NCBI GenBank assembly: GCA_019454145.1
Contig: CP075366.1
Span: 225,564-289,563 of the forward strand
Source of the DNA: Fimbriimonadaceae bacterium
Lineage (GTDB): Bacteria > Armatimonadota > Fimbriimonadia > Fimbriimonadales > Fimbriimonadaceae
Reading direction: 5' to 3'
DNA: 64,000 bases
Every line of letters starts with the position of its first letter. The stretch's first letter is position 1. Below, in pieces: positions 6,500 through 40,213 of the stretch. The translations under genes and the position numbers were made by a program. The notes under the pieces were generated by a model. It did not search any database. It had not been told where the DNA came from and saw only the letters and a list, made by a program, of their open reading frames with translations.

Positions 6500-6523
6500 G
6501 CGAAATGAGTTTGCATTTCTAAA

Positions 6524-8546: not shown

Positions 8547-8681
8547 CGCTATCCGCTTCCTCCATTTGTTGAGCCTGTGATTGCATAGGTTCCCTCAGTT
8601 GTATCGGTAACTATTTGCACGTAGGATACGACATACAGACGAAATTGGGTAGTCAAAGGTTGTCATTTGAGTGTGTTGGGC

Positions 8682-9434: not shown

Positions 9435-9442
9435 TTTAGGCC

Positions 9443-21557: not shown

Positions 21558-21570
21558 GCGGATAAAAACT

Positions 21571-21954: not shown

Positions 21955-21990
21955 AGAATCCCCGCTCAGATTTGAGCGGGGATTCTTTTT
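21953..21990. terminator. Bidirectional intrinsic terminator
   Basis: AAAGAATCCCCGCTCA-GATT-TGAGCGGGGATTCTTT between convergent genes. Confidence 0.85.
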
Positions 21991-21994
21991 CGGC

Positions 21995-24900
21995 CTAACC
22001 TTTCTTACCGATTTGCTTCATGACTTCCTCGACCGCTCGCTTGAGCTGAGGATCTTCGTTGCGGAAGTATTGATCAGGGTCAATATCCACTTCGATATCG
22101 GGCTTTTCGCCGATGTTTTCGAGTGGAGTTCCGTCTACGCGGTAAGAGCCTGTCTGCGGAAGGCGGATAACCGTGCCGTCAACAAGAACTCCGCCGTATG
22201 TGTAGATGACGTAACCCGGTGTTTGCATACCGACCAAGGTTGCAAGTCCGAGGGTCTTCATGGCGGCAGGGAACATTTCTGCGTTGCTGAAACTTGTTTC
22301 TGCATGCATAACCACTGTGGGTTTGCCCCAGAGCTGACCAGGGCCAGGGACTTCATCTTGGTCTCGTGGCACGTACCGCAGGTGCATCTTGCGTTCAAGC
22401 GCATCAATCAGGACGTCGGCAATGTTTCCGCCACCGTTTTCGCGGACATCAATGATCACGCCTTCTTTACCCTGAATGTATTCCCACATTTCAGCGTTAA
22501 AGGTGTTGAGGTTTCCTCCACCCATTCCCGCGATGTGAACGTAGGTGACTAATCCACCGCTGAGTTTTTCAACGTATTCGCGTCGCCATTCAATGCGGTT
22601 GTTGTAAAGGATTTGCCCGAATGCACCAGATGAAATAGCCCGGTATTTAACTTCTCGGGCACCATCCATCGAAGGCTTAGAATTGACTGTGAAAGTCACA
22701 TCTCGGCCTTGCTCGGCGGTCAGAATTTTGAAGAAGTTCTGATCAGCCCGAACGCTTTGACCATTGACCTTCATCACATAGTCGCCCGGATTGATTTTGG
22801 TTTTTGCGTAAGAGCCTGGCGAGTTCGCCGGAACATCCTTGACACGCACTCCTAAGCCAGTGTAACTGTAATCAATCGTGAAACCAGGGTGAGCGGTGGT
22901 TTCAGAACGCTCGCCCCCAAATGCTGGGCTAACTTCAGAGTGGCTACTTTCAAGTTCGCCGACCATAAAGTTGAGTACATTCGCCATTTCTCGACGATGA
23001 GCAACACCATCCAAAAGGGGTTGGTACCGATCCCGGATTTTCGCCCAGTCGCGTCGGTGGAAGTATTCGTCGTAGAAGTTCTGATTGTAAGTTCGCCAGA
23101 ATTCATGGAACGCGGCTTTGCGTTCGGCAACTAAGTCGCGAGTCCAAACCGCTCGATATTCGACGGCTGTTGTCGGCATATTTGGCTGTCGAATGTTTTG
23201 GATGGTCGGCACTCCGCCCGTCACGTAGAACAGACTGTTGGTGTCGCCAAGAACTTCAAACGAAGTTGCGCCAGTTCGAGAAACCTGAGCTTCCTTTTCA
23301 CCGTCGTAACCAACTCGCGTAATGTTATTACCTTTAATAAAGTAAAGGTCGCCCTTTTCTTTATCGCTGTAAAGTTGGCCCGGTTGAGCACCATTCACAA
23401 AAGGCCGGATACGGTCTTCGGGACGGTTGAAATCAAAGTCAACGGTCACCGCACCTTCTGGCTTGGTGTACTTAAGTTCAATGATGTTGCTTGGGGCATC
23501 TTCTTGTTGCGCTGGGCAGATAAAGATTCCCGTTGGGCCACGATCACTGTAGAAGTAAAGGTATTTGCCATCAGCAGACCATTCAGGCGAATTGTCGGTC
23601 GAGTTAAGCTTTGTAACGTTGATTTCTTTACCAGTGGCGATTTCTCTTACCCAAACGTTAGTTTTATTGTCCCAATATTTAAACCCAGAGTTGATCAGAG
23701 TTTTGACGTACGCCACGTACCGCATATCTGGGGAGAATGCGTACTGTTGAAGGGATGGCTTGTCCAGAACTCGGGTCGTCTTGCCAGTGTCGAAATCAAG
23801 CGTAAAGAGGCCGCCCTGGCGACCGTTCACCCAGTAAGCCAGTGCCTTCTTATCTGGTGTAACTGAAATTCCCTGAATGTCGGTTGTCGTTTTGTGGGCA
23901 ATCGTGATGGAGTCATCGGCGACGTTGTATTTGTAGAGCGAAAGCGCTCCATCTCGGTCGCTGGTGAAGTACACGAATTTTCCATCTGGCGAGTAGACCG
24001 GTTGAGTATCAGAACCGGCAAAGTCGGTTACCTGCTTGGCGTCGGCTCCGTTTGGCCCTTTGCCTTTGGTAGTTGGGACACTGAACAGTTCACGATTCAC
24101 CTGGAAGACGACATTCTTGCCATCGGGTGAGATGGTTGCTTCAGATGCACCGCTCGTGATAACGTTTCGGGTTGTATTGCGACCTTTATCGTCGATGATT
24201 CCGGTAAAAGTCACTGCGGTTACGCTTGCCCCAGCGTTTCCAACTACAGGATCAACTTTAAAGATATTTCCGTCTCGCTCAAAAACCATGTGACCAGTTT
24301 TTGAGGCAACTGAAAGGAACCGCGTCCCATCGCCACCCACTTCATTGGTGAGACGCCGTGCCTTTCCAGCGGAATCAACTACGTAGATGTTCGGCGTACG
24401 GTTGACGTTATCTGTAAAGACCGCTGGCTTTTCATCAATGTTACGAGAGCTTGGAGTCTTCTCGGTTACTGTAACCGTGTAGATATTTCCGTTTGGCCCG
24501 TACTGTGGCCATAGATGTTGGAACCGGTTTGAACGTAGTAATTTGCGATTTTTGCCGTCTGCGCCAATTGTCCAAAGCTGCGAAGCACCGGAACCCTCAT
24601 ATCTTGGACGATAGATGCTCATCATTGCTTTGTGCCCGAAGACAACACTTTTTCCATCTGGCGACATTGATGGCGAATCAATCCGGAAATTGGTGATGAA
24701 CAACTCGTTCATCTTTAAATCAGTGACATCAAGTGTGTAGATACCGCTCGCGGCTTTATCTATGGTGGCGTTCATCGTGATTAGGTTGCCCGACCATGAG
24801 ATGGGAATTTCTGAGAAGCTGCCGAATGTAAGTTGCTTGGTCTGACCCCCTTCTAAGGGCACGGCATAGATGTCCCAGTTGCCGTTGCGGTCAGTGGCAT

Positions 24901-25156
24901 AGGCGATCCATTTTCCATCAGGGCTCCAAACCGGGTTGTCGTCCATCTCAACGTTGTCGGTGAGGCGGGTGGCTTTTCCGCCATCGCTGCTGCCAAGCCA
25001 TATATCGCCTCGATAGGTGAATGCCAGGCTTTTTCCATCGGGGCTGAGAGCCAAAGAGCGTGCGCCAATAAATTGGTGCGGGGCGGCAGGCGTGATCTGC
25101 ACAGCCGGTAGGCTGGCCGCCAAAATGATTGGGAGAAATGTCATGGTAGTTACCAA
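21995..25156 (-). CDS. Tricorn-like S41 family peptidase with PD40 beta-propellers and PDZ domain
   Basis: Repeated SPDGK/WSPDG PD40 motifs, MVGELESSH, IIDVRENGGGNIAD, SFSNAEMF, PDIEV; signal peptide (start may be 25144). Confidence 0.92.
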   Translation of the reverse strand: MVTTMTFLPIILAASLPAVQITPAAPHQFIGARSLALSPDGKSLAFTYRGDIWLGSSDGGKATRLTDNVEMDDNPVWSPDGKWIAYATDRNGNWDIYAVPLEGGQTKQLTFGSFSEIPISWSGNLITMNATIDKAASGIYTLDVTDLKMNELFITNFRIDSPSMSPDGKSVVFGHKAMMSIYRPRYEGSGASQLWTIGADGKNRKLLRSNRFQHLWPQYGPNGNIYTVTVTEKTPSSRNIDEKPAVFTDNVNRTPNIYVVDSAGKARRLTNEVGGDGTRFLSVASKTGHMVFERDGNIFKVDPVVGNAGASVTAVTFTGIIDDKGRNTTRNVITSGASEATISPDGKNVVFQVNRELFSVPTTKGKGPNGADAKQVTDFAGSDTQPVYSPDGKFVYFTSDRDGALSLYKYNVADDSITIAHKTTTDIQGISVTPDKKALAYWVNGRQGGLFTLDFDTGKTTRVLDKPSLQQYAFSPDMRYVAYVKTLINSGFKYWDNKTNVWVREIATGKEINVTKLNSTDNSPEWSADGKYLYFYSDRGPTGIFICPAQQEDAPSNIIELKYTKPEGAVTVDFDFNRPEDRIRPFVNGAQPGQLYSDKEKGDLYFIKGNNITRVGYDGEKEAQVSRTGATSFEVLGDTNSLFYVTGGVPTIQNIRQPNMPTTAVEYRAVWTRDLVAERKAAFHEFWRTYNQNFYDEYFHRRDWAKIRDRYQPLLDGVAHRREMANVLNFMVGELESSHSEVSPAFGGERSETTAHPGFTIDYSYTGLGVRVKDVPANSPGSYAKTKINPGDYVMKVNGQSVRADQNFFKILTAEQGRDVTFTVNSKPSMDGAREVKYRAISSGAFGQILYNNRIEWRREYVEKLSGGLVTYVHIAGMGGGNLNTFNAEMWEYIQGKEGVIIDVRENGGGNIADVLIDALERKMHLRYVPRDQDEVPGPGQLWGKPTVVMHAETSFSNAEMFPAAMKTLGLATLVGMQTPGYVIYTYGGVLVDGTVIRLPQTGSYRVDGTPLENIGEKPDIEVDIDPDQYFRNEDPQLKRAVEEVMKQIGKKG

Positions 25157-25196
25157 AATGGCTACCGTGATGTTAGCTAAAGTTGTTCCCGGAATT

Positions 25197-25829
25197 CTAG
25201 GCCAAAAAGCAGAATTGTGCTTGCAAGTGATTTAAGGCTTGCGTGACTTTGTGAATATTCTGCGATCGTGGGTCGCTACCTGTCACGTGGATATCTGCAT
25301 TCAGCGAGCTTGGCTGAACGTGATTTGTCCAGGATGGCATCACATGGTTATTCCACTGGCGCAGGATTGATTCAGGAGTTCGGCCTCGCTCTCGCTGGTC
25401 ACGCTCAAGCCGGCGATTGAGAGCTTGTTCTACGGGCAGATCAACAAAAATCTTGAGGCAAGGGATCGTTGGCAGTGCTTCTTGGAGCAGCGAAAACTGG
25501 CCCTCAGCGATGATGACCGGTTGCGGGGAAATTGTTTGTGAGCGAATCCGTTTACTCGTGACAAAATCATAAATAGGAGTTTGAGTGGCAACTCCGTTTG
25601 CAAGCTGAGTGAGGTCGTTCCGCCAATGGTCAAGGTGGAACATCTGTGGACAATCCCAGTTCAGGTCAGCCGCTTCGTGGAGGTGATCGGGCAGATCGCG
25701 GTAATAGTCATCCATCTTGATGAGTGTTCCGTTCAGAACCTCAGCCAAATCTTGCGCGAGAGTGGTTTTGCCCGACGCGCTTAATCCGGCGATTGCGATG
25801 ATGGATGCAGGCTGTTTCACTCCGCCCAA
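25197..25829 (-). CDS. udk: Uridine kinase family protein
   Basis: GLSASGKTT, MDDYY, YDFVTSKR, IIAEG, RRLERDQRERGRT. Confidence 0.8.
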   Translation of the reverse strand: MGGVKQPASIIAIAGLSASGKTTLAQDLAEVLNGTLIKMDDYYRDLPDHLHEAADLNWDCPQMFHLDHWRNDLTQLANGVATQTPIYDFVTSKRIRSQTISPQPVIIAEGQFSLLQEALPTIPCLKIFVDLPVEQALNRRLERDQRERGRTPESILRQWNNHVMPSWTNHVQPSSLNADIHVTGSDPRSQNIHKVTQALNHLQAQFCFLA

Positions 25830-25963
25830 ATTGTGGCTCCTTTTATCAGCAAATTGTTAGCAATTTGACCCAAGTATTTAGGACTATGCAGCATCGGATT
25901 TCAGTTCAAAGACGTTGAATAGATCAAGTTCTCAAATGGCGTTTTGAGAGCCTGATAAACGAA

Positions 25964-26821
25964 ATGAACACACTCAAGGTAACAGTTCTTCTCGCTGCAT
26001 TGACTGGATTATTCGTGCTGATGGGGCAAGCCATCGGCGGAAACTCTGGCATGGTCATCGCATTCGTGATCGCCCTGGTCATGAATGTGGCGAGCTACTG
26101 GTATAGCGATAAGCTGGCTTTGAGCATGGCGCGGGCGCAAGAAGTTTCTCCGGCACAGGCACCCGATCTTCACAAGATGGTTGAAGTGCTGGCTGGACGC
26201 GCTAAGATTCCGAAGCCGAAAGTGTATTTGGTGAACGACCCTAGCCCGAATGCATTTGCAACCGGACGAAACCCATCGCATGCGGCGGTTGCCGTGAACA
26301 CCGGGCTCCTGAACCTACTCACCCCTGATGAAGTGTTTGGAGTAGTGGCGCACGAAATCGCTCACATCCGCAACCGAGATACGCTGACCATGACAGTAGT
26401 CGCGACTATTGCTGGTGCGATCACTATGCTTGCCGGATTCGCCCGGTTCGCCGCGATCTTTGGTGGTCTGGGTGGCCGCGATGATGGGGAAGGCAACAAC
26501 ATCCTTGGGCTGCTGGCTATGGCGATTGTTGCTCCGGTTGCCGCGATGATTATGCAGTTCGCGGTTTCGCGGGCAAGGGAATTTGAAGCAGATAAGTGGG
26601 GTGCCGAGTTTGCGGGAACTCCCGATGGTTTGAGCAACGCTTTGTTGAAATTAGAGCGAGGAACGAGCATGGTTCCTACTAAAACCGATGCGGCTCACGC
26701 TCCCTTGTACATCGTGAACCCGTTGAAGGGAATGGGTGGCTTCGCCAAATTGTTCATGACCCATCCGCCGGTTGAAGAGCGGGTGGCTAAGCTTCGTACG
26801 ATGCGGGCGAAAGCGGCCTGA
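25964..26821 (+). CDS. htpX: Zinc metalloprotease HtpX (M48)
   Basis: PNAFATGRNP, VAHEIAHIRNRD, SRAREFEAD, THPPVEER. Confidence 0.95.
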   Translation: MNTLKVTVLLAALTGLFVLMGQAIGGNSGMVIAFVIALVMNVASYWYSDKLALSMARAQEVSPAQAPDLHKMVEVLAGRAKIPKPKVYLVNDPSPNAFATGRNPSHAAVAVNTGLLNLLTPDEVFGVVAHEIAHIRNRDTLTMTVVATIAGAITMLAGFARFAAIFGGLGGRDDGEGNNILGLLAMAIVAPVAAMIMQFAVSRAREFEADKWGAEFAGTPDGLSNALLKLERGTSMVPTKTDAAHAPLYIVNPLKGMGGFAKLFMTHPPVEERVAKLRTMRAKAA

Positions 26822-27002: not shown

Positions 27003-30000
27003 ATGAGAGTCATTCAACCATCCTCGAAGCGCATTGGCCGATCGCTCGAGGTTCCTAACCTAATTGAACTTCAGCTCAACAGCTACAAGTTTTTCTTGGA
27101 AGAAGGCCTGCCCGAACTTTTTACCACTTTTAGCCCGATTTGGGATTTTACGCAGAGCAATTACATTGAATTTACGGAGTTCGTTTTGGGCGAACCCAAA
27201 TACGGCATGCAAGATTGCCGCGACCGCGACCTCACCTACGAAGCACCGATCAAGGCAACTGTCCGATTTGGTGGAAAAGATCGCGAAGTTATCGAATCCG
27301 AAGTTTATCTCGGCGATTTGCCATTGATGACCGATAAAGGAACCTTCATCATCAACGGCCGCGAGCGGGTCATTGTTAGCCAGCTCAGCCGATCACCCGG
27401 GATTTACTTTGAAGAAGACGTTGACACATCCATGCAGATGATCGCCCGAGCGCGGTGCATCCCAATGGAAGGCCCTTGGTTGGAAGTCGAAAACGATTCC
27501 AACGGTGTTGTCAACACTCAAATTTCACAAACCAAAAAGTTGCCGATCACCCAGCTGGTCAAGGCTCTCCACGGCTTTGATAAAGGTCGGGATCGCCAAG
27601 TCCGCAAGATCGAAAACTCTCTCGGCAAGCGGTTGGCAGAACCCTTAGCTGATCCAGATACCGGCGAAGTCGTTTTGGATAAGGGAATCATCCTCACCAA
27701 GCGCGTGTTTGCTGGTCTGAGCGATGAAGTCAAGCAACTTGAGTGCATGATGGAAAGCCCGCTCGGTTCAACCGAAGACATGTACTGGTACTTCGGCGAA
27801 GAGCTTGAAATCGAAAACCCAACGGTTGAAGATTTGGAAGGCGCGCGCACCGTTGAAGAACTCACCGAAGGTAAGAAAGTTATCGTTGGTGCGATGCAAA
27901 AGATCGAGCATGACACGGCCGTCAAGCTCGTTGACATGAAGATCGACAAGGTTTACTTGCTCCGACTTCCTGACTACATCGAAACCACCCTTGCGGCAGA
28001 CAAAGTTGCCAACACCCGCGAAGCAATCCTTGATATCTACAAGCGAATGCGACCAGGTGAAGCGGCAAACGATGATGCGGCTAAGCAACTCGTTTTCAGC
28101 TTGTTCTTTGATATGCGGCGCTACGACTTGGGTAAGGTCGGTCGCCGGTTCTTGAACAACCGCTTGAAGCTCGACGTTTTGGGTAACACCCGAAACCTCA
28201 CCAGCGATGATCTTGCTCGCACGCTCATTGAAATGGAGCCTTACCTCAAGAAGGAAGCGGATCACGATGACATTGACGACCTGCGAAACAAGCGTGTCCG
28301 AAGTGTTGGTGAGCTCCTGGCCAGCCAGTTACGACTCGGTTTTGTGCGGATGGAAAAGGTTGCCCGAGAACGAATGACCTCGGCAGACCAAGATAACCTT
28401 CTGCCAAGCATCATCCTGAGCGTCAAGCCGGTCAGTGCAAGCATTAAGAGCTTCTTTAGCTCCAACCAGCTTTCCACGTTCATGGATCAAACCAACCCAT
28501 TGAGCGAATTGACGAACAAGCGTCGTCTTTCGAGCCTTGGCCCTGGTGGTTTGCAACGCAACAGCGCAAAGCTGGAAGTCCGCGACGTTCACCGAAGCCA
28601 CTACGGTCGGATTTGTCCGATTGAGACGCCTGAAGGTCCAAACATTGGTTTGATTTCTCAGCTCACCACCCACGGTCGGATTGATGAATTTGGATTCATC
28701 ATGACTCCGTACCGCAAGGTGGTTGAAGGCCGAGTTACCGACGAAGTTGTTTACCTGACGGCTCAAGAAGACTTCCACCTGCGCATTGCTCCGGCAGACA
28801 CTCAGCTTGACGAGAACGGCTTGATCGTTGGCGACCGCGTAACCGTGCGTTGCCCTGGTGGTGACAAACAGTTCGGTGGTGCGAGCTACCCAGCTGTTCC
28901 TCCAACCCGTGTTGACCTGATGGACGTCAGCCCAGTTCAGATCATCTCGGTTGCAACCAGCTTGATTCCATTCCTCGAAAACGACGACGCGAACCGTGCT
29001 CTCATGGGTGCGAACATGCAGCGTCAGGCGGTTCCGACTCTGCGAAGCGATGCTCCGATTGTTGGTACTGGCTACGAAAAGCGAGCGGCTATTGATAGCG
29101 GCGCAAGCGTGATCGCTCGCCGAAGCGGTGTCGTCGAAACCGTGACGTCTAAGATGATCACGATCAAGACGGAAGACGGAACCGTGGACACCTACGAGTT
29201 GCTCCACATGTTCCAAAGCAACAAGTCCACTTGTTTCACCCACCGCCCAATCGTTTTCCCTGGTCAAAAGGTTCTTAAAGGCGATGCGCTTGCTGATGGT
29301 GCAAACACTGACGACGGTCGGTTGGCACTTGGTAAGAACTTGATTGTTGCCTTTATGCCTTGGGGCGGTTACAACTACGAAGACGCGATCATTTTGAGTG
29401 AGCGCCTAGTGAAGGATGACGTTTACACGTCCATCCACATTGAGCGACACGAAGCCGAAGCCGTAGATACCAAACTCGGGCCAGAAGAAATTACCCGCGA
29501 TATTCCAAACGTTGGGGAAGACGCTCTGCGCGACCTCGATGAAAACGGAATCATCCGAATCGGCGCGGAAGTTCGACCAGAAGATATTCTTGTTGGAAAG
29601 GTTGCTCCTAAGGGTCAAACCGAAATGACCGCCGAAGAACGGTTGATCATTGCGATCTTCGGTAAGAAGGCCGAAGAAACCCGCGACGTAAGTTTGACCT
29701 TGCCGCACGGTGAAAAGGGAACGGTTATTGACGTCAAAGTCTTCAGCCGGTTCAAGTACCTCAGCCCAAGTATCAACTATGTTTACAAGGAAAGCAAAAA
29801 GCGCGACCGCTTGATCTGCGATCGAACGGAAGAGCCGTTGCTTCAAATTCCTGGTGACGAATTGCCAGCAGGTACGAACATGACCGTTCAAGCCTACGTT
29901 GCCACCAAGCGAAAGATCATGGTTGGTGACAAGATGGCTGGTCGCCACGGTAACAAGGGTGTTATTAGCCGAATCTTGCCAGTGGAAGATATGCCGGTTT

Positions 30001-31022
30001 TGATGGATGGTTCACCAGTTGATATCATCTTGAACCCGCTTGGTGTTCCAAGCCGGATGAACATCGGTCAAATCTTGGAAACCCACCTCGGTTACGTTGG
30101 TTACCACCTTGGTTGCCGCTACGAATGCCCAGCGTTTGAAGGTGCAACCGAACACGAAATTCTGCAGGAAGTTGAAAGGCTTGCTGAGCACTTGCGAACC
30201 AAGGCTCTCAAGGCTTATGTGAACTCCGAGCTGATGCTGAACATTCGTTTTGCGAACGACGCTACTCTCAGCGACATGTTGGCGTTGGTGGAAGCTAAGC
30301 TCAAGAGCCTCGACCAAGATTCACTCGAGCGAGTTGCCCGCATCACAGCGGCTCCTTCAACCCGGTCAATGGAAGAGTTGATGGCAATTGATGTTGAAGA
30401 ATTCGAGGCAGAAGAAGTCAACGAAGTTCCTGGCAAAGCATACAAAGCTGATAAAGAAGTGTATGCCGGAATTATGGAAAGTATCGAGAAAAACGTGTTC
30501 AAGCGCGCGGGCCTCGATCCACACAGCTGTAAATCAATCGTTCGCGATGGTTTGACAGGTGATGAACTTCCTAACCCAGTAACAGTTGGCTGTATTTACA
30601 TGCTTAAACTTGAGCACTTGGCCGACGAAAAGATTCACGCACGTTCAATTGGCCCTTACTCCTTGGTTACCCAGCAACCGCTCGGTGGTAAGGCGCAGTT
30701 CGGTGGTCAACGGTTTGGTGAAATGGAAGTTTGGGCACTTGAAGCATACGGTGCCGCATACACATTGCAAGAATTGCTAACCATTAAGTCAGACGACGTT
30801 ATGGGCCGGGTTAAAGCTTATGAACTCATCGTTAAGGGTGAATCAATCCAAGAACCAGGCATCCCTGAATCGTTCAAGATTCTTGTCAACGAACTTCGCT
30901 CCCTGTGTCTCAAGGTCGCAGTGGAAGATAAGTCGAACAAGGAACTCAGCTTGAAGGATCTGGATGAACTCACCGGCAACGATGATGTTCGACTGGCTCG
31001 TTCGGTTGGATTCTTTAACTAA
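27003..31022 (+). CDS. rpoB: DNA-directed RNA polymerase subunit beta
   Basis: FIINGRERVIVSQL, GRICPIETPEGPNIG, GDKMAGRHGNKGV, GGQRFGEMEVWALEAYGAA. Confidence 0.99.
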   Translation: MRVIQPSSKRIGRSLEVPNLIELQLNSYKFFLEEGLPELFTTFSPIWDFTQSNYIEFTEFVLGEPKYGMQDCRDRDLTYEAPIKATVRFGGKDREVIESEVYLGDLPLMTDKGTFIINGRERVIVSQLSRSPGIYFEEDVDTSMQMIARARCIPMEGPWLEVENDSNGVVNTQISQTKKLPITQLVKALHGFDKGRDRQVRKIENSLGKRLAEPLADPDTGEVVLDKGIILTKRVFAGLSDEVKQLECMMESPLGSTEDMYWYFGEELEIENPTVEDLEGARTVEELTEGKKVIVGAMQKIEHDTAVKLVDMKIDKVYLLRLPDYIETTLAADKVANTREAILDIYKRMRPGEAANDDAAKQLVFSLFFDMRRYDLGKVGRRFLNNRLKLDVLGNTRNLTSDDLARTLIEMEPYLKKEADHDDIDDLRNKRVRSVGELLASQLRLGFVRMEKVARERMTSADQDNLLPSIILSVKPVSASIKSFFSSNQLSTFMDQTNPLSELTNKRRLSSLGPGGLQRNSAKLEVRDVHRSHYGRICPIETPEGPNIGLISQLTTHGRIDEFGFIMTPYRKVVEGRVTDEVVYLTAQEDFHLRIAPADTQLDENGLIVGDRVTVRCPGGDKQFGGASYPAVPPTRVDLMDVSPVQIISVATSLIPFLENDDANRALMGANMQRQAVPTLRSDAPIVGTGYEKRAAIDSGASVIARRSGVVETVTSKMITIKTEDGTVDTYELLHMFQSNKSTCFTHRPIVFPGQKVLKGDALADGANTDDGRLALGKNLIVAFMPWGGYNYEDAIILSERLVKDDVYTSIHIERHEAEAVDTKLGPEEITRDIPNVGEDALRDLDENGIIRIGAEVRPEDILVGKVAPKGQTEMTAEERLIIAIFGKKAEETRDVSLTLPHGEKGTVIDVKVFSRFKYLSPSINYVYKESKKRDRLICDRTEEPLLQIPGDELPAGTNMTVQAYVATKRKIMVGDKMAGRHGNKGVISRILPVEDMPVLMDGSPVDIILNPLGVPSRMNIGQILETHLGYVGYHLGCRYECPAFEGATEHEILQEVERLAEHLRTKALKAYVNSELMLNIRFANDATLSDMLALVEAKLKSLDQDSLERVARITAAPSTRSMEELMAIDVEEFEAEEVNEVPGKAYKADKEVYAGIMESIEKNVFKRAGLDPHSCKSIVRDGLTGDELPNPVTVGCIYMLKLEHLADEKIHARSIGPYSLVTQQPLGGKAQFGGQRFGEMEVWALEAYGAAYTLQELLTIKSDDVMGRVKAYELIVKGESIQEPGIPESFKILVNELRSLCLKVAVEDKSNKELSLKDLDELTGNDDVRLARSVGFFN

Positions 31023-31037: not shown

Positions 31038-31072
31038 AAATGGCCGATCCTAAAAAGGGTCGGCCATTTTTT
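31038..31072. terminator. Bidirectional terminator after rpoB, overlapping the pnuC stop
   Basis: AAATGGCCGATCC-TAAAA-AGGGTCGGCCATTTTTT. Confidence 0.85.
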
Positions 31073-31754
31073 GTTGCATTTCCATGGACTGACGCCATTC
31101 TTTAATACCGAACACCGCCATCACCGTGAATACAGTGTACAAAATCGCAGTTGGATAGTATTCGCGGTAGATAAAAACCGGGATGATCACAACATTCGCG
31201 GCGATCCAGAAATACCAGCTCTCAAAGATCTTGCGGTTGGTCAAATATTGAGCGGCGAGGGCAAGGGAAGTTGTGGTGGCATCAAAGTAAACAAAATTTC
31301 CGCGGACTGAATAAAGCAGAGCAATGAGCACCGGGATGAAAACGATCATTGTTCCGATAATCACGCCCCAATTTTTAAGAGAAAGCCGAGTGATTGGCAG
31401 TTGCGGCTGTTCGGATCTTCTCGCCCACTTAATCCAGCCATCAATGAGATAAATGGCGTTGATGAGCATCAAAGATGCCTCGCCGAAGTGCTTGGCGACA
31501 CTGAAAAAATAGATTCCGTAGGCAATCGCCCAGATCAGGCCAACCGGGTAATTCCAGGCGGATTCTTTGACCATCAGATACACGCCAACCACGCCGGACA
31601 CGAATCCCACAAATTCAATTTGGTTGTAGAGATCAGTCGGGAACAGGAGAATCGGCTGACCCGCGAGTAAAGGAGAAATGCCTTGGGCGGCGATACACAC
31701 AATGGCGGCAAAAATCGCGAGGAGTACAGATATTTGCCACGTGTTCAGCTTCAC
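31050..31754 (-). CDS. pnuC: Nicotinamide riboside transporter PnuC family
   Basis: WNYPVG, YFDATTTSLALAAQYLTNRKIFESWYFWIAAN, GIKEW. Confidence 0.85.
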   Translation of the reverse strand: MKLNTWQISVLLAIFAAIVCIAAQGISPLLAGQPILLFPTDLYNQIEFVGFVSGVVGVYLMVKESAWNYPVGLIWAIAYGIYFFSVAKHFGEASLMLINAIYLIDGWIKWARRSEQPQLPITRLSLKNWGVIIGTMIVFIPVLIALLYSVRGNFVYFDATTTSLALAAQYLTNRKIFESWYFWIAANVVIIPVFIYREYYPTAILYTVFTVMAVFGIKEWRQSMEMQQKMADPF

Positions 31755-31879
31755 GGCTCTGGTTTTACCTTTTGATCAGCCATTGATCGGGCTTTATGTT
31801 TTCCTTATGAAATCATGCCGGGAGTGGTTAGGAATCAACATATCCGAACTCGTAAAGTGATAACTGTAAGGACAAAACT

Positions 31880-32050
31880 ATGCTGAGAAACTCACTGATA
31901 TTCCTCGCCATCGCTATCGTTGCTGGTCTGCTCGGTTTGAGCGGAATCGCAGGGGTTGCCACGACAATTGCTTATGTGCTGTTCGTGATCTTCCTGATCT
32001 TGTTTGTGATCAGTTTGATCACTGGTCGCAGCGCATCTTCCGGCGTCTAG
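31880..32050 (+). CDS. DUF1328 / UPF0391 small membrane protein (56 aa), not in ORF track
   Basis: Hand translation [56 protein letters not shown]; AAGGA RBS. Confidence 0.85.
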
Positions 32051-32062
32051 GAGAGAAATGTA

Positions 32063-32100
32063 GGGGCGTGTTCATCCGGTCGAACACGCCCCACTTTTTT
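32063..32100 (+). terminator. Intrinsic terminator after the DUF1328 gene
   Basis: GGGGCGTGTTC..GAACACGCCCC followed by ACTTTTTT. Confidence 0.85.
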
Positions 32101-32235
32101 GCTTCATAAAGTTGATTCAATTCCAACAGATTCGTTATTTTTTGAGTAGTATGAGGGCAGGCAAATAAACGCCGCCTGCGAACCCGCAAAACCCTGTTTT
32201 GGGACCTTTGGCGGAAAGGTGGTTGTTTGTGCCTG

Positions 32236-32271
32236 TTAGACCCGGTAATTGGGTGTGTTTCACGCTATAAT
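32236..32271 (+). promoter_or_regulatory. Candidate sigma70-type promoter for rpoC
   Basis: TATAAT at 32266-32271, ~100 nt before rpoC and after a terminator; no clear -35. Confidence 0.4.
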
Positions 32272-32373
32272 TTGTGTCCGCTCCGACCTCACCAACCCCC
32301 TTTTCTCGTCTGTTCTAGACTCCAGCGATGATAACGTGGGGATTGTTCATGTGGTTTGAGCACATTGGACACC

Positions 32374-35300
32374 ATGGCTGATAGCAACCTGTTTGACAAG
32401 ATTCGTATTGGAATCGCCGCTCCCGAAGATATCCGAAGTTGGTCTCATGGAGAGGTCAAGAAGCCGGAAACCATTAACTACCGCACATTCAAGCCCGAAC
32501 GGGATGGTCTTTTCTGTGAAAAGATTTTTGGGCCTGTCAAAGATTACGAATGTGCTTGTGGCCGGTATAAGAAAATCAAGTACAAGGGCATTATTTGCGA
32601 ACGATGTGGCGTTGAAGTCACCCGTAGCAAAGTCCGACGTGAGCGCATGGGCCACGTGGAACTTGCGGCTCCTGTCTGCCACATTTGGTACCTCAAGGGT
32701 GTTCCATCCCCGCTGGCATTGATCCTCGATATCAGCCCTCGCCAGCTTGAAAAGGTTATCTACTTTGCTAGCTTCATCATCATCGACATCGAAAAGGAAA
32801 CAATCGATGAGCTGATGCCAGAAATCTTGAGCCACGTTGAGCAAGAAAAAATCGCGATTCAAACTCAAATGCGCGAACTCGAAATGGAAAGTCTGCAACG
32901 ACTTGCCACCGAGATGATCAACAACCCAGACGAGTACTTCGACGAAAGCTACGTCAAGGAACGGATGAAGGCAAATTACGACCGAATCCGGGCGGAGTAC
33001 CGAGATGCGGACGAACGAGTAAAAGACCTCGACATCGCGGCAAACATTCTTTCTCAGCTTGAGCTTTACCAACTGATCGAAGAAGATAAGTGGCGCGCCA
33101 TCAGCAAAATGCTTGATTCCGTTGGTCGCCGCATGAAGCGCGACATCAGCGAACTTGTTCACGCAAATATCGGTGCTGATGCTTGTAAGGAACTTCTCAA
33201 GCGAGTTGACCTTGAACAGCAAGTTAAGGATCTTCGTGCGGAAATCCGCGTAACCACCAGCCAACGCCGGTTGCGCGCAATCAAGCGACTTGAACTCGTT
33301 GAAGCTCTCACCCAATCCAAATCCAAGCCGGAATGGATGGTTTTGGAAGTCGTGCCGGTCATCTCTCCTGAACTGCGTCCAATGGTTCAGCTGGATGGTG
33401 GACGATTTGCAACGAGCGACCTCAACGACCTCTATCGTCGAATCATCAACCGAAACAACCGGTTGAAGCGGATTATTGAAATCCAAGCTCCGGAATCAAT
33501 CATCAACCACGAAAAACGGCTGTTGCAAGAATCCGTTGATGCTTTGATTGATAACGGCCGCCGAAGCCGCCCAGTTGTTGGTAGCAACCAACGACCGCTG
33601 AAATCTTTGAGCGATATGCTTAAGGGTAAGGAAGGTCGGTTCCGAAAGAACTTGCTTGGTAAGCGGGTTGACTACTCTGGTCGTTCCGTTATCGTTGTTG
33701 GTCCTCACCTTAAGCTTCACCAATGCGGTTTGCCAAAGGAAATGGCTCTTGAACTCTTCAAGCCGTTCGTTATGAAGGTTTTGGTTGAGCGCAAGGTCAC
33801 ACAAAACATCAAGACCGCCAAGCGCATGATCGAAAGAATGCATCCTGCGGTGTGGGATGGTTTGGAAGATGTAATTAAAGAGCATCCGGTTCTACTCAAC
33901 CGTGCGCCAACCCTGCACCGACTTGGAATCCTCGCATTCGAGCCAATTCTGGTTGAAGGGAAAGCAATTCAGCTTCACCCACTCGTCTGTCACGCCTATA
34001 ACGCTGACTTTGACGGTGACCAAATGGCGGTTCACGTACCACTCAGCTTGCAAGCTCAAGCGGAAGCGCGAGTTTTGATGCTCAGTACGCAGAACTTGTT
34101 CTCACCGGCTGACGGTCGCCCAGTCAACGCACCGGTTCAAGACCCAGTTCTTGGTTTGTACGCGCTCACATTCACAAATCGGGCGGCGGCAGAACGACTG
34201 GAGCAACGTGCGAAAGAGCACGCTGCCGACCGAGAAAACGTCACAGCTTCAACCGTTTACGGTTCACCAGAAGAAGTGATGTATCTGCTGGATGCACCGG
34301 GCGATCACCAAGGCACCTTGCACTTGAACGCTCCAATCCGGGTTCGATTGCGCACTCCGGTCTTGCGACCAGATTCAGAAATTGACTACCGCGATCCGGC
34401 GACTGGTCAAGAGTTCAAGTACGTCATCACCAAAAACGAACTGGATGAAGATGTTAAGAATCTTGAAGAACTAGAAATGGAAATGGAGTCACGCATCGTG
34501 ACAACCACTCCAGGCCGATTGATCTTCAACGAAGTTCTGCCTTATCCGCTCCGATACAGCGAAAAGTATCTGGACATGGAAATGGGCAAGAAGGCGATTC
34601 CTGAATCCATCGTTGCGGTTTACAACGCGGTCGGCGCAGAGTCAACCATCCGATTCCTCGATGACATCAAAGACCTTGGATTCAAATACGCTTCCAAGTA
34701 CGGAATCTCCATCGCGCTCACCGACATGGATCCGCCAGCTCGACGTGAGGAAATGCTCGACGAAGCAGATTCCAAGGCGAACAAGGTTCTCGAAAACTAC
34801 CGACGTGGTTTGATTTCGTTCCGCGAAATGCAAGAAAACCTCGTTCGACTTTGGACGAGCACATACGACGAAATCGGTAACGCCATTGTTGCGAACATGG
34901 ACCAAGAGAACCCACTTTCGATCATCACCGTCAGTGGTGCTCGGGGTTCGATCAAGCAGCTTGCTCAGCTGAGCGGTATGCGCGGACTCATGTTCAACCA
35001 GTTCAACGAAGTTATTTACGAACTTCCAGTTAAAAACTCGTTCCAAAAGGGATTGAGCATGCTGGAGTTCTTTGTAACGACTCACGGTGCTCGTAAAGGT
35101 CTTGCCGATACGGCGCTCCGAACGGCGGACGCTGGTTACCTCACCCGACGTCTCGTGGACGTTGCTCAGGATGTCATCATCCGAGCCGACGACTGCGAAA
35201 CCACCGACGGTGTGCTTGCGTTCCGGCTCTTGCTTGATGGCAAGGTCATTGAATCCATGGGTGAACGAGCTTTTGGCCGTATCTCCCAAAGCGCAATCAG

Positions 35301-37050
35301 CGACCCGGCAACTGGCGAATCGGTTTATGAACTCGGCGACTTGATGACTCAAGCCAAGTGCGATCACCTCGACAAGATCGAAAGCACCTATTACAACGAA
35401 ATCGAAGGCATGAGCGAAGAAGAAACGCTCAAGCACAACGAAAAGTATGTAAAGGCTGGATTCGAGTTCGACGACCACGGTCGCCTTGGCGCCAAGGTTC
35501 GCTCGCCGATCACCTGTTCGCTTGACGTTGGAATCTGTGCCAAGTGCTACGGGGTTGACCTCAGCACCAAGAAGGCAGTTGAAAACGGCGTTGCTGTTGG
35601 TATTATCGCCGCGCAGTCCATTGGTGAACCTGGAACGCAGCTCACGATGCGTACGTTCCACACCGGTGGTGTTGCTGGTTCTAAAACCATTGCACGAACC
35701 AACCAGTACAAGACTGGTAAGTTCATCCGCCAGTTCCAAGAAGACTTCCAATCGGCTACTCAAACCACGGCAAACGAGTTTGACCCGACAAAGTTGCTGG
35801 AAAGCCAAGAAGATGCGATCAAGAGCCTGTTCGGCGACAGTTCAAACTTCGTCAGCCCGGTAGAAAGCAAGAAAACCGAAAAGACCACCAAGAAGGCACA
35901 AGAGAAGATGGAAGGCGACAGCCGCAAGCTTTGGGAACGAAGCCGAAAAACATTCTTCTACTCTTGGACCGGTGAATCCAGCGGTATCGTTCGGGTTGAA
36001 GAAATCTTCGAAGCTCGAAAGCAGCCACGGGGTAAAGCAATCATCTGCCCGGTTACCGGGATTGTTGCCGATATCCAACGCAGCAGCTTCGGCCGCTGGG
36101 TTGTTATCGAAGCAACCGTCGAAGTTGGTACTCCGCTCAAGGATGCTTACATCACCGACAGCCAAAACTGGGGCGACAAGGTTCCGGCACCGGTTGAACG
36201 ATTGATTGGTCAAAAGCTCAGCACTCAAGCCTTGCACACGTTGCGCAAGCACGAAATTGCTAAGATCAACGTGCTCTTCCCAGTCCTTGTTCCACCGCTT
36301 GGTAACTTGCCGGTAGAAAAAGGTCAGAAGATCATTAAGGGTGACCCGCTCACCGAAGGGCCTCTCGATCCGCACGAAGTTCTTGAGCTTGCTGGTTCAA
36401 AGGCAGTTCACGAATACTTCATCGAAAACCTGCAAAGCGTTTACAAAGATCAAGGCGTTGATATCAACGACAAGCACCTGGAAGTTATTGTGCGGCAAAT
36501 GCTGCGCAAACGACAGGTGAAAGATCCGGGCGACACTCCGTTCCTTCCAGGGCAGATTGTTGACCGAAACCGGTTCAACCGCGAAAACGAACGAGTCCGC
36601 GCTCGCATTGCCGAAGGGAAGAAGGTCAAGTACACGAACCCTGAAACTGGCGAATCCATGGAACGCGACCCGCGCGAATCAACCGCGAACTGGATTCTGC
36701 TTGGAATCACCGAAGCATCGTTGGCAACCGAGAGCTACCTCTCAGCCGCATCGTTCCAAAAGACGACCCGGGTTCTCACCGAAGCCGCCGTCCGAGGAAA
36801 AACCGATCCGCTGCTTGGTCTCAAGGAAAACGTCATCATCGGTCGCTTGATTCCGGCTGGTACGGGTGTGAAGGCTCACCGCGAACTCGCGGTCGACGTC
36901 GATCGCTCGCAACCAAGCTGGGCACAGCAGTCGCTCACCGCGTTGGTGGAAGCAGAAGAAGGCGATATGCAGTCCGAAGGCGATGTCTTCGGCGGCTTGA
37001 GTCTTGCTGACCTGGCGGCTCAGGACGACGACGCTCCAAGCGAAGAATAA
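32374..37050 (+). CDS. rpoC: DNA-directed RNA polymerase subunit beta'
   Basis: [75 protein letters not shown]. Confidence 0.99.
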
Positions 37051-37066
37051 GCGTTCTTTGCTCGTT

Positions 37067-37104
37067 AAATACTCCTTGCTGATTTTCAGTGGGGAGTATT
37101 TTTT
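37067..37104 (+). terminator. Intrinsic terminator after rpoC
   Basis: AAATACTCC..GGAGTATTT followed by TTTG. Confidence 0.75.
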
Positions 37105-37122
37105 GTTTAACTCCTTCTTTTT

Positions 37123-37680
37123 ATTCCTCCCCAGAATTGGGGACGAGACTCCGAGACTATTGGTTTGGCATCTCCCCACAAAGGTTGGGGGGAGATTGAG
37201 AGAGGGGTTGAAAGCCTGCCGATTGCCAGCTCAACCCCTCCCACTCCGATCAATCGGAGCACCCTCCCCGATCTTCGGGGCGGGAATTTAAGAGTCTAAT
37301 ACGGGTGCTGGAGTAAGCCTAGGAAGCACGTCTAATTAACTGATTTGCTTTCATCTGATTCTGTTGGAATTGAGTTCTCCTCCCAAGTTTGGGAGGAGAT
37401 AAAGAGGTGGGTTGTTGCTAGGTAAAGGAATTGCTGATCAACCCCGCCCTGCCCTCCCCAGGCTTGGGGAGGGAATTCAAACGGTAGACACTGGGTGGCA
37501 CGGGTTTTTCAACCCGTGGGCTAGCAGAAATAAACAGCTCAACCCCACCCTAAACCTTCCCACGCTTGGGGAGGGAATTCAAACCACCAAGTTTGGGTGG
37601 CACGGGTTTCAAACCCGTGGGCTAGGTAAAGGAATTGCAGGTCAACCCCGCCCTGCCCTCCCCAGGCTTGGGGAGGGAAA
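37123..37680. repeat. BIME-like mosaic of family A and family B REP-like palindromes
   Basis: Copy of the 146-bp unit core at 37171-37288; A-B-A-B-A array with GCTAG at 37417, 37520, 37621. Confidence 0.88.
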
Positions 37681-37686
37681 CCAGAC

Positions 37687-38121
37687 TCACTTCTTCGTCA
37701 ATTCAGTATCAATCGCATCCGAGAGCTTTTTAAAGCTCGAAACAACCCGCACGGCGTAGCGGTCTTCTTCTACCCGGATGATGTTCACCTCGATCAAAGC
37801 CGACTCGTTATCCATTGTTGCGAGCATTTCTCCTTGAAGACGGTCGTTTTTGGAAAGTAGGGAAGCGGCGGTCAGGGTTTCTTTGATGTAAGCATCCGAC
37901 CACTTATTGTGCTTATCAAAGGTAGCGATCGCGCGGAGTTTTGCCCCGAGTTGCGCCATCGGCACGATGATCTCGGCGATAAAAGTGTTGGACTTATCCA
38001 ATTCCACCGGAGCAGGTGCGGCTTGTACGTCAGAAGTTGGCTCGGGCTTTGGCGGACTGGAGATCGTGCATCCGCCAAGAACCACCAGAATCAAGACTGC
38101 CATCCAGTAACGTGCCATCAA
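37687..38121 (-). CDS. Hypothetical lipoprotein
   Basis: Signal peptide with LGGC lipobox. Confidence 0.7.
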   Translation of the reverse strand: MMARYWMAVLILVVLGGCTISSPPKPEPTSDVQAAPAPVELDKSNTFIAEIIVPMAQLGAKLRAIATFDKHNKWSDAYIKETLTAASLLSKNDRLQGEMLATMDNESALIEVNIIRVEEDRYAVRVVSSFKKLSDAIDTELTKK

Positions 38122-38321
38122 TGAGGTTGTACCTGGGGAAAAGTTTTGTTACTGGGATTGTTAAATGAAGCGTTTTTGGCATCATTTGAGCAGAGTAGTA
38201 AACCAAGTACAAGAGCAAATTCCAAAGAAGCAATTTTCCGCTCTGACGTACTTCCTAACAGTTGGCGAAATCTGTTCGCCGTGTTGCAAGATGGGCCGCA
38301 CCTCAAAAATGCGGCTCTCTT

Positions 38322-38930
38322 TTATTCTGGTCTTTTGAGTTCAAACCGCTCGTGATTAGCAAGATCAAGATACTGCGGGCCGCCTAACCGGGCGATGAGA
38401 TCGGCGGGCGTGATAAGTGCTCCGTTAAGAAGTTCTGACTGCACATGCATCCTGTGAATCTGACCAATGATGTACCGCGATGCGCCGGGGCCATCTCCAT
38501 GCGGGACTATTTGGTAAAGGGTGCATTCCATTTGCACGGGCGATTCAGCAACCCGCGCGGGCTTGACAAGTTCTGATTCCAGCATCGTGAACCCCGAATA
38601 AGCCCATTCGTTGACGTGATCGGGGAAGTTAGGCGACGTTTCGTTCATGCCTTCCGCCATTGATCGGGTGAGTAGATTGACAACGAACTCTCCGGTAGCT
38701 TCGATATTGGTGCAAGTGTCTTTTTGTTCGCCTTTGCCATCCAAAACCGTGCAGATAGTGAGCGATGGTGGATTGATTCCGCCGATGTTGAAGAAACTAA
38801 ACGGGGCGAGGTTGGGGATGCCCGATTCGCTGAGGGTGCTGACAAACGCAATCGGTCGCGGCACCACTAGGTTAGACATGAGGTCGTAGATACGACCGAA
38901 CGGTTCATCGGCAAAGTTGATGGTCGTCAT
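38322..38930 (-). CDS. Flavin reductase (DIM6/NTAB) family protein
   Basis: VVPRPIAFVST, NLAPFSFFN, KDTCTNIEATGEFVVN, ARLGGPQY. Confidence 0.9.
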   Translation of the reverse strand: MTTINFADEPFGRIYDLMSNLVVPRPIAFVSTLSESGIPNLAPFSFFNIGGINPPSLTICTVLDGKGEQKDTCTNIEATGEFVVNLLTRSMAEGMNETSPNFPDHVNEWAYSGFTMLESELVKPARVAESPVQMECTLYQIVPHGDGPGASRYIIGQIHRMHVQSELLNGALITPADLIARLGGPQYLDLANHERFELKRPE

Positions 38931-39601
38931 CGCATTTGCTTATTCAGGAACTTGATGGTTTTATCCCAAGCATCTTGGCTGGCGGCGGCATCGTGAACTT
39001 CCGGTCGGTCGGAGTTAAAAAACGCGTGGTGGCATCCGGCGTATGTATGGAATTCGTGGGCGACCTCGTTTGCCGTCATAGTGCGGTCAAGTTCGGTAAT
39101 CACATCTGGTGATGAATATTCATCGTGCTCAGCGAAAATTCCGAGAACCGGAGCCTTCATTGCTTCGTAGTCTGGCTGGACGTTAGGGTGGACTCCGTAG
39201 AAGTTCACGCAGGCCGCTATTCGTGGATCGAGACCTGCGGCGAACAACGCGAGTTGTCCACCCATACAAAATCCTACGACGGCGACTTTTTCGGTGTTCG
39301 TATTTGGGTTGGCAATGAGGGCGGTTACAGCAGATTCGATGACTTTGGCGGCATTGGCGATATCGAGTGCCATGAACAGCGATCCGGCTTCATCTGGCTC
39401 GGTGGTGGTGACTCCGTGGTAGAAATCAGGGGCGAGCGCGGTGTATCCCGCCGTCGCGAATTGGTCGGCGACATCTTTGATATGCCCGACTAAGCCCCAC
39501 CATTCTTGGATCACGATCACTCCGGGGGAAGGAGAACTCGCGGGTGCCAAGTACCCGGAAAAAGTCTCGCCGTTGGCGGCAAATGAAATCATTTCGCCCA
39601 T
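38927..39601 (-). CDS. Dienelactone hydrolase family protein
   Basis: IQEWWGL, GFCMGG, HAFFN. Confidence 0.93.
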   Translation of the reverse strand: MGEMISFAANGETFSGYLAPASSPSPGVIVIQEWWGLVGHIKDVADQFATAGYTALAPDFYHGVTTTEPDEAGSLFMALDIANAAKVIESAVTALIANPNTNTEKVAVVGFCMGGQLALFAAGLDPRIAACVNFYGVHPNVQPDYEAMKAPVLGIFAEHDEYSSPDVITELDRTMTANEVAHEFHTYAGCHHAFFNSDRPEVHDAAASQDAWDKTIKFLNKQMR

Positions 39602-39634
39602 GGTTCTAGTTTAGCTTGAGCCGAGGACTATACT

Positions 39635-40213
39635 TTGGGGGTGAGCGAAGGGAATCGGTTTTTTATTGGGCTTGCGATCCCGGAAGCTGTGAAACAGGAA
39701 CTGCGGACTCAGCAGGAATGTTTGCAACGTATCAGCCCAGAAATTTATAAAATGACTGAACTCAATAATCTTCACCTGACACTCTACTTTTGTGGAAATA
39801 CGGATGAAGAGACAATGGTTCGCATTGGCAACGGGCTTGCGGAGATGAATTTGACTCAGCTCGAACTGCAAATTGATGGACTCAAGCGATTGCCGAGCAA
39901 CGATGTGCCAAAGATTCTTTCCGCGGGAGTATGCAGTAGCAGCCGCGAACTAGCGGCAATGCAGCAACGGGTTCATGATTTATGTTTCGCGCTGGCTGAG
40001 AATAAGGAGATGCGTCCGTTTGCGCCGCACATCACGTTTGCTCGGCTGGCGCACGGGGTTCCGCCAAGTGCAAAGCCGGTTAAGCGTGCGATAGCGGGTT
40101 TGCCGGATTTGCCTGCGGTTCGTTGGCGTGTTGACGATATTGGGATTTATTCGAGCGAACTGACCAAACAGGGGCCAAAGTATGAAGTGGTTCGGACAAT
40201 TCCTCTTAGCTAG
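39635..40213 (+). CDS. thpR: RNA 2',3'-cyclic phosphodiesterase (2H phosphoesterase)
   Basis: RFFIG, LHLTL and PHITF HxT motifs, SELTKQGPKY. Confidence 0.9.
   Translation: MGVSEGNRFFIGLAIPEAVKQELRTQQECLQRISPEIYKMTELNNLHLTLYFCGNTDEETMVRIGNGLAEMNLTQLELQIDGLKRLPSNDVPKILSAGVCSSSRELAAMQQRVHDLCFALAENKEMRPFAPHITFARLAHGVPPSAKPVKRAIAGLPDLPAVRWRVDDIGIYSSELTKQGPKYEVVRTIPLS

Follow-up and report, generated by a model that had tools for sequence, protein, structure and literature searches.

A conserved, predicted helical insertion at the trigger-loop tip of the RNA polymerase β′ subunit in Fimbriimonadaceae, with a shorter form across Armatimonadota

Every cellular RNA polymerase has a mobile catalytic element, the trigger loop (TL), and the locus described here raises the question of what a block of nearly one hundred additional residues represents when it sits at the very tip of this loop. 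The window (the whole stretch analysed: 64,000 nucleotides, positions 225,564 to 289,563 of contig CP075366.1) comes from a bacterium of the Fimbriimonadaceae (Armatimonadota) and holds an open reading frame (ORF) at 32356-37050 on the forward strand that encodes the β′ subunit (rpoC), 1564 residues long when counted from the TTG at 32356, with an ATG 6 codons downstream. Its identity is secure: Pfam Rpb1 domains 1 to 5 occur in order (PF04997, PF00623, PF04983, PF05000 and PF04998), all above cut-offs and with E-values of 1.9e-79 to 6.5e-10 for RNA_pol_Rpb1_1 to Rpb1_5, and solved bacterial β′ chains from the Protein Data Bank (PDB) match at E = 0, the closest of them being insertion-free enzymes (e.g. 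8i23_D, 6wvj_D and 5uh5_D). The query region is 100% identical to that of locus L010 (Fimbriimonadaceae ACE_ARM7, JAHBTE010000001.1), which is the window's own genome, a metagenome-assembled genome (MAG).

The insertion comprises exactly 97 residues (aa 1109-1205; window 35680-35970) between trigger helix 1 (TH1) and trigger helix 2 (TH2), so that the original prediction, which had placed about 95 to 97 residues in the TL at these same coordinates, was right on both position and length. It is flanked by the TH1-side motif (aa 1098-1108) and by the TH2-side motif that begins at aa 1206, and is rich in Lys, Thr, Ser and Glu (K13 T12 S11 E9 F8 Q7). The N-terminal arm of the TL together with TH1 (35599-35679, forward strand as are all features below within rpoC; aa 1082-1108) retains the catalytic Met, Arg and His and is invariant or nearly so in both of our alignments (A1 and A2). 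Indeed, the catalytic Met-Arg-x-x-His of TH1 and the TH2 core RVxExFEAR are intact in the window β′, where they read MRTFHTGG and RVEEIFEAR, both invariant in A1 and A2. The β′ subunits of Bacillota, Actinomycetota, Deinococcota and Chloroflexota share an identical TH1 and the same TH2 core (RVxE[LI]FEAR), but their tip is only 8-9 residues long (VAGxDITQ), whereas 104 residues separate FHTGG from the GxxRV of TH2 in the window. The start of TH2 is also changed, as had been predicted: the helix (35971-36018; aa 1206-1221; H176-184 in the structural model described below) opens with ESSGIVRV in place of the canonical (D)ITQGLPRVEELFEAR, such that DIT and the Pro of DITQGLPRV are lost while the hinge Gly is kept.

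To define the family-level version of this element we grouped as the long form those sequences with 103-124 residues between FHTGG and G-I-V-R-V plus two conserved end motifs. The long form was found in every Fimbriimonadaceae-type locus recovered (56 distinct sequences), and the window carries all of its motifs, which are at least 80-95% conserved across this set, the altered TH2 motif being invariant in 56 out of 56. Conservation is concentrated at the two ends, where the first ~30 and last ~30 residues are 80-100% conserved, with a Lys/Glu-rich middle that varies in both length and sequence. Against the closest relatives the ratio of nonsynonymous to synonymous substitution rates (dN/dS) is 0.03-0.06 for the insert and 0.05-0.10 for the whole protein, values that are approximate because dS is saturated, and the dN of the variable linker is 3-5 times that of the remaining insert. 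The insertion is fixed in the Fimbriimonadaceae, and purifying selection acts strongly on its two ends.

That the window derives from a MAG is the sole point in favour of an artefact, whether a mis-assembly, a frameshifted read-through, an intein or a mobile element within rpoC, and we consider the chance of this to be practically nil. The insert keeps the reading frame, and more than 120 distinct sequences (long and short forms together) from different assemblies and studies share it in conserved form. Independent metagenome contigs (X2, 4795 nt; X6, 3056 nt) cover 35400-36200 without indels, those listed differences that were checked fall at third codon positions, and contigs of metatranscriptomic origin (X12) match 35701-35744 and 35863-36023. 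At the variable linker an X6 contig has 150 nt replacing 144 nt. Foreign contigs stacked over 35589-35679 end in loosely matching sequence encoding EDITHGLPRV, the canonical tip of other bacteria. No intein or transposase signature was found in Pfam, and these readings were rejected.

The structure of the insert was approached with two AlphaFold2 (AF2) models, one of aa 1035-1480 in context (446 residues, an alignment of 93 sequences, mean predicted local distance difference test (pLDDT) 81.6, predicted template modelling score (pTM) 0.81) and one of the TL and insert only (mean pLDDT 57, pTM 0.25). Both predict three helices and not a single strand in the insert, in keeping with its description from the letters alone as helical and rich in Lys, Glu and Thr. 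In the in-context model an N-terminal linker (35680-35712; aa 1109-1119), near-invariant in the long form and non-helical by DSSP, leads into helix α1 (35713-35760; aa 1120-1135; H86-101 in context and H45-58 in the insert-only model). Helix α2 (35785-35823; aa 1144-1156; H110-122 and H67-82, respectively) is preceded by a conserved FDP motif and is followed by the variable linker (35824-35886; aa 1157-1177), a coil of low confidence that makes up the lowest pLDDT block of the insert. Helix α3 (35887-35967; aa 1178-1204; H144-170 with pLDDT 78-85, and H96-127) then runs on toward TH2, from whose own helix (aa 1210-1218) it is separated by a short break at TGESS; its C-terminal stretch is near-invariant, and the dN of α3 against the relatives L002 and L004 is 0. 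Ten-residue pLDDT blocks lying wholly inside the insert range from 59 to 88 in context, and TH1 falls below 50, as is expected of a mobile loop.

Features of the alignments point the same way as the models. Column-averaged hydrophobicity has an α-type periodicity of 95-110 degrees over the predicted helices of both long and short forms (~95-100 degrees in α1), and Pro and Gly are restricted to the predicted helix breaks in both. A 'domain', as the insert had been called, therefore describes it only in part: three helices are predicted, but the middle ~21-27 residues, variable and modelled with low confidence, resemble a linker more than part of a compact domain. Taking fold, conservation and distribution together, we regard it as very likely that the window carries a conserved, genuine and helical TL insertion that is not built of sandwich-barrel hybrid motifs (SBHMs). 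An origin of the insert by internal duplication, whether from TH1, from TH2 or between its own helices, was rejected (ungapped BLOSUM62 scores against 5000 shuffles, p = 0.13-0.78).

The obvious comparison is with SI3 (β′In6 or β′-i6), the insertion that interrupts the same loop in E. coli and other Gracilicutes as well as in cyanobacteria and plastids. The site is indeed shared, as predicted: the insert is bounded by GGVA(G) and by the xxxxG[LI]xRV with which TH2 starts, and these boundaries coincide with those of SI3 in loci that we recovered from Planctomycetota and Verrucomicrobiota (L070-L078 and L158; 182-188 residues between GGxA and DIT[GT]GLPRV). Both occupy the TL tip, with TH1 (FHxGG) on one side and TH2 (G[LI]xRV) on the other, are lineage-specific and surface-exposed, and must move in each cycle of TL folding. 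This shared site is what could be said for the insert being a highly diverged or degenerate SI3 that arose in the same event as that of the Gracilicutes or the cyanobacteria, a reading that we judge very improbable and that is largely refuted by profile, fold, length and distribution. The insert profile aligned to a genuine SI3 profile by hhalign with a probability of 0.2%, and a Pfam search with either form of the insert gave no barrel-sandwich match (best E 0.017, to an unrelated family). The same search with SI3 as positive control recovered PF21668 (RPOC_hybrid, 5.9e-7) and five more families of the SBHM type, among them PF01333, PF01551, Biotin_lipoyl and NQRA_N, the NqrA barrel-sandwich domain. 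As modelled, the insert consists of helix and coil only and does not contain at least two β-rich SBHM repeats. Moreover, each SBHM is ~90 residues long, so that an insert of 97 residues, or of ~52 in its presumed ancestral form, is too short for two of them, the corresponding lengths for SI3 being 188 residues in E. coli and ~645 in cyanobacteria.

Further differences set the two apart. SI3 is a β-rich sandwich-barrel hybrid with no detectable sequence or profile similarity to the insert, which is predicted to be all-α. The last helix of the insert appears to run into TH2, whereas SI3 is joined by a flexible linker, and the DITxGLP motif of TH2 is remodelled in the window but is kept as DIT[GT]GLPRV in the SI3-bearing sequences recovered. 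Published classification agrees with this distinction: a 2024 survey of BEAN and HABAS insertions that covers Armatimonadetes β′ (PMC11515920) assigns in its table both proteins from the phylum (CCW36301.1 of Chthonomonas calidirosea and AIE86843.1 of Fimbriimonas ginsengisoli) to 'type 2', with no insertion in the TL-bearing domain. Our sampling of neighbouring terrabacterial phyla likewise found no TL insertion and no xxxxGLLRV motif. In 74 of the 77 readable loci from Bacillota, Actinomycetota, Chloroflexota and Eremiobacterota only 8-9 residues lie between FHTGG and GLPRV, which agrees with the earlier remark that most RNA polymerases of the Gram-positive type lack SI3, and a tip of this length (VAGxDITQ) was present in ~70 of the 120 database proteins examined. 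Since the TL is uninterrupted in the neighbouring phyla sampled, the insert appears, on sequence comparison, to have been acquired within the Terrabacteria independently of SI3.

Within the Armatimonadota the insertion is far from peculiar to the window. Scanning species-representative genomes with an alignment of the insert only revealed a shorter insert at the same site in ~65 distinct sequences from the Chthonomonadales, Capsulimonadaceae, Armatimonadales, Abditibacteriales and several unnamed lineages; an earlier scan with the short-form alignment had caught universal RpoC motifs, almost only from outside the Armatimonadota, and was reused as the insertion-free control. In the short form the flanks are 57-73 residues apart (59-62 in most cases), which amounts to ~49-57 extra residues; a typical sequence is GKYLTGVAEVKKKKQESLRDLHEDIRRGLVSIEDGVEGMERERARAVQAVLKVLEDQVRGLLRVVELFE. 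In nearly all of these sequences TH2 reads GLLRVVELFE, again without the canonical Pro, such that the Armatimonadota replace DITQGLPRV with xxxxGLLRV. Gly-rich segments surround two amphipathic helical stretches, of which the second reaches TH2 across the conserved hinge Gly, and this pattern suggests for the short form a probable helix-loop-helix hairpin, with TH2 as the continuation of its second helix (...AVQAVLKVLEDQVRGLLRVVELFEAR).

The two forms share their site, their phylum, an [IL]Rx[FL]xED[FI] core, a near-invariant Asp, the loss of the TH2 Pro and a helical periodicity. In a MAFFT alignment the α1 of the long form (IRQFQEDF; IRxFxEDF in general) was matched with the first helix of the short form (LRDLHEDI; LRxLxEDI), and α2, the variable linker and a segment of 17 residues were placed as additions of the long form. 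They differ in length (57-73 versus 103-124 residues), in the absence of α2, of the variable Lys/Glu linker and of the 17-residue segment from the short form, and in the sequence of TH2. We infer, with moderate confidence and from sequence comparison, that the long form is a family-level elaboration in the Fimbriimonadaceae that is nested within a phylum-wide short form.

Several observations were made on individual lineages in the course of this survey. In L198, a Chthonomonadales MAG (DATIKM010000153.1), the first helix is tandemly duplicated (LRELHDDIKSGVVDF … MRELHDDIRSGRVSF) to give 90 residues between the flanks, a sequence-level case that illustrates how such an insert may grow. The Fimbriimonadales MAG NZL85 (P0029) has a divergent version of 95 residues with a different sequence, and the unclassified MAG-56 (L069/P0053) a divergent insert of 60 residues with GIHRVEGLFE; judging by these sequences, in deep branches the TL-tip site seems still to be diversifying. 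An (A)PLTIN motif lies inside the variable linker of one Fimbriimonas-type subclade (L025, L032, L035-L045, L048-L055 and similar) and is absent from the subclade of the window, whose linker is shorter. The residue after the catalytic His also varies, being Leu or Met (FHLGG or FHMGG) in the Abditibacteriales loci L195, L219 and L224-L228 and Tyr (FHYGG) in L208, an 'Armatimonadota bacterium', in place of the near-universal Thr of FHTGG. Finally, inserts of the Armatimonadota type were seen in L006, L019, L171 and P0010, which are labelled Methyloversatilis discipulorum, Archangium gephyra, Dehalococcoidia and Thaumarchaeota, and which are probably mis-binned or mislabelled MAG contigs.

How far this element is new can be judged from the literature on TL insertions. 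A 2021 preprint states that all known TL insertions are SBHM repeats (bioRxiv 10.1101/2021.01.27.428476), and a 2024 study likewise lists SBHMs as the TL inserts of many bacterial phyla (PMC11077087). The survey cited above (PMC11515920) contains neither the word 'helical' nor 'coiled', and thus describes no helical insertion. In the searchable literature, which does not extend to subscription sources (notably Lane & Darst 2010), we found no description of a helical TL insertion in the Armatimonadota. On this showing the insertion appears to be uncatalogued, a lineage-specific TL insertion whose predicted fold is new and whose origin is independent. The claim of novelty thus stands with respect to the literature searched, but not in the sense of something special to the window genome, which carries the family-level form of a shorter insert that is found throughout the phylum.

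What might such an element do? The original prediction suggested distinct catalysis or regulation, which would be one possibility. As the catalytic residues of TH1 are intact, the enzyme should use the normal cycle of TL opening and folding into the trigger helices. We propose that the insert would act as an arm that is stiffly joined to TH2, almost helix to helix, through the conserved Gly hinge, and flexibly joined to TH1 through a non-helical linker (Gly-rich in the short form, an extended segment of 11 residues in the window). A stiff joint on one side and a flexible joint on the other would oblige the arm to swing in every folding cycle. In GLPRV the Pro caps the N-terminus of the helix, and its loss is consistent with a helix that has been extended N-terminally. 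The hinge Gly aligns with the TH2 hinge region of E. coli; in that species β′ I1134 and G1136 are sites of slow and fast mutants. During its swing the arm may dock on and undock from the surface of the polymerase near the mouth of the secondary channel (the rim helices or the jaw), which would bias the equilibrium between open and closed TL and in this way tune elongation rate, pausing and intrinsic RNA cleavage. It might also partly gate factors that use the secondary channel, such as GreA, and in the long form the disordered charged loop could reach out into solvent, where it might serve in contacts.

The proposed effect on TL folding is drawn by analogy with SI3, which shifts from the jaw to the rim helices upon TL folding and modulates pausing (PMC11077087; bioRxiv 10.1101/2021.01.27.428476), and which in its cyanobacterial version (Si3) shields the binding site of Gre and DksA (PMC10895346). 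By this analogy the insert likely has a role of the same kind, in tuning TL folding, pausing and access to the secondary channel. For the specific mode of action, a mobile helical arm on TH2 that biases TL folding, we would put the chances at about even. The explanation as a whole (a helical insert at the TL tip, of short-form ancestry, that serves as a TL-tuning arm) is one that we favour, with some reserve.

Several points weigh against this explanation. The confidence of AF2 in the insert is moderate in context and low for the insert by itself (pLDDT 57, pTM 0.25), and Foldseek with the latter, low-confidence model returned no match better than E 4.7; with the 446-residue in-context model it returned β′ chains only and is silent on the insert, and profile searches of PDB sequences with hidden Markov models of the long- and short-form inserts gave nothing meaningful. 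The short-form hairpin is read from sequence periodicity only. The long and short inserts matched each other with a profile-profile probability of only 5.3%, so that their homology is argued from identical position, phylogeny and a motif of 10 residues. The place at which the arm would dock on the enzyme is pure conjecture. GreA is reported for Fimbriimonas ginsengisoli (PMC4072686), and among the recovered loci it is the long form that its genus has; the secondary channel can therefore not be permanently blocked, nor any gating absolute. Lastly, complete deletion of the cyanobacterial Si3 brought no marked change of catalysis in vitro (PMC10895346), which means that conservation of a TL insertion does not imply an effect on catalysis, and which keeps two rivals alive, namely the docking of a partner and a largely passive role.

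In the first of these, the insert would be mainly a docking platform for a region of sigma, a lineage-specific elongation factor or nucleic acid, and would not modulate TL kinetics. Its near-invariant surface-type motifs exceed the conservation that a mere spacer needs, its charged variable loop resembles a flexible tether, and in cyanobacteria SI3 is reported to have a TL-independent role through sigma in the form of an SI3-sigma arch (PMC10120043), which together with the slight catalytic effect of deleting Si3 (PMC10895346) offers a precedent. Even so, the conserved aromatic and hydrophobic residues of the insert could equally form a surface for intramolecular packing, and the genes scanned at 22-9997, 21177-26821 and 31050-40213 are housekeeping or unannotated and suggest no docking partner (10-21 kb and 40-64 kb were left unscanned). 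We hold docking as the main role to be unlikely, though it is compatible with an effect on TL kinetics.

Alternatively, the insert could be a passive expansion of a surface loop that is tolerated and has been kept only because its removal would disrupt the folding of a remodelled TH2. A central region that varies in length and sequence, and the large insertions tolerated at the TL tips of other lineages, would suit such a view. It is difficult to reconcile with two insert ends that are as conserved as the catalytic core in the 56 long-form sequences, with a short form that has been kept across the phylum, with the low dN/dS of the insert (0.03-0.06), and with a coupled remodelling of TH2 that is fixed in every member; we consider it doubtful.

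A more daring version of the TL-tuning arm takes the GreA/GreB and DksA coiled coils as its model. These are, like the insert by our reasoning, antiparallel α-hairpins of similar calibre located in or at the secondary channel, with conserved acidic residues near the end of the first helix, and at the level of sequence a helical periodicity and a conserved E-D are present in the insert. The insert is unlike them in that it acts in cis, as a part of β′, and is anchored at the active-site end, so that its polarity would be reversed. It might accordingly be pictured as a built-in α-hairpin that continues TH2 and lies in the secondary channel as a Gre or DksA coiled coil does, but in the opposite orientation, a suggestion that we put forward as speculative and rather improbable. 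The GreA of F. ginsengisoli argues that the insert is not a simple replacement of Gre, and a tblastn search with approximate E. coli GreA and DksA queries against the window and 238 loci (~2 Mb around rpoC) gave no match, in too little sequence to be informative. Were the suggestion correct, channel occupancy, NTP entry, the handling of backtracked RNA and proofreading would be coupled directly to TL folding, the insert would be a second and structurally unrelated solution to the problem that SI3 solves, and in the Fimbriimonadaceae it would have gained one more helix, along with a charged, disordered tether by which a partner might be recruited.

Returning to the TL-tuning arm itself, a small all-helical insert at the SI3 site would show that regulatory elements have repeatedly been added at the TL tip, a recurrent hotspot, and that the SBHM fold is not required for them. 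It would provide a compact natural contrast to SI3, being fixed throughout a phylum, coupled to remodelling of the TH2 hinge and elaborated in one family, and the existence of cultured members (Fimbriimonas ginsengisoli and Chthonomonas calidirosea) makes the idea directly testable. As rpoC is a phylogenetic marker, the insert in combination with GLLRV or GIVRV offers a clean synapomorphy for the Armatimonadota and the Fimbriimonadaceae, respectively, and this signature has already exposed the several mislabelled MAG contigs mentioned above.

Two other regions of the window β′ depart from the usual subunit. A large and apparently helical N-terminal insertion lies at aa ~135-270 (window ~32760-33160), and the 312-position Pfam profile of Rpb1_1 is spread over aa 12-433. 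The SBHM immediately after the TL (window ~36080-36230; aa ~1243-1290) holds ~45 extra residues, partly helical in AF2 (H244-247 and H256-264 in the numbering of the model), which are common to other Armatimonadota and fit the 'type 2' β′ class of PMC11515920.

The surroundings of rpoC are unusual as well. Toward the start of the window, the segments 22-1446 and 8682-9997 contain the 3′ part of a ribonucleotide reductase alpha gene (truncated at the edge of the window), uppS and frr, and NCBIfam gave no match at 1e-8 for a further six ORFs in 1437-8546. Over 21995-26821 rpoB lacks the usual rplK-rplA-rplJ-rplL cluster upstream, and the genes preceding it encode a tricorn-like protease (PD40, S41 and Tricorn_C1 domains), a member of the uridine-kinase/PRK family and an M48 peptidase. 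Between rpoB (27003-31022) and rpoC lies a gene for a nicotinamide mononucleotide transporter of the PnuC type (PF04973, E 1.3e-39) at 31050-31754 on the opposite (reverse) strand, followed by a gap of 601 nt (31755-32355), and the usual rpoBC operon is thereby split. The interposed pnuC was found only in the close relatives of the window (L001, L005, L006, L008 and L010). In several other Fimbriimonadaceae the distance from rpoB to rpoC exceeds 0.7 kb, or rpoB is out of range; in most Armatimonadota the gap between the two genes is ~30-470 nt, and in F. ginsengisoli four genes lie in between.

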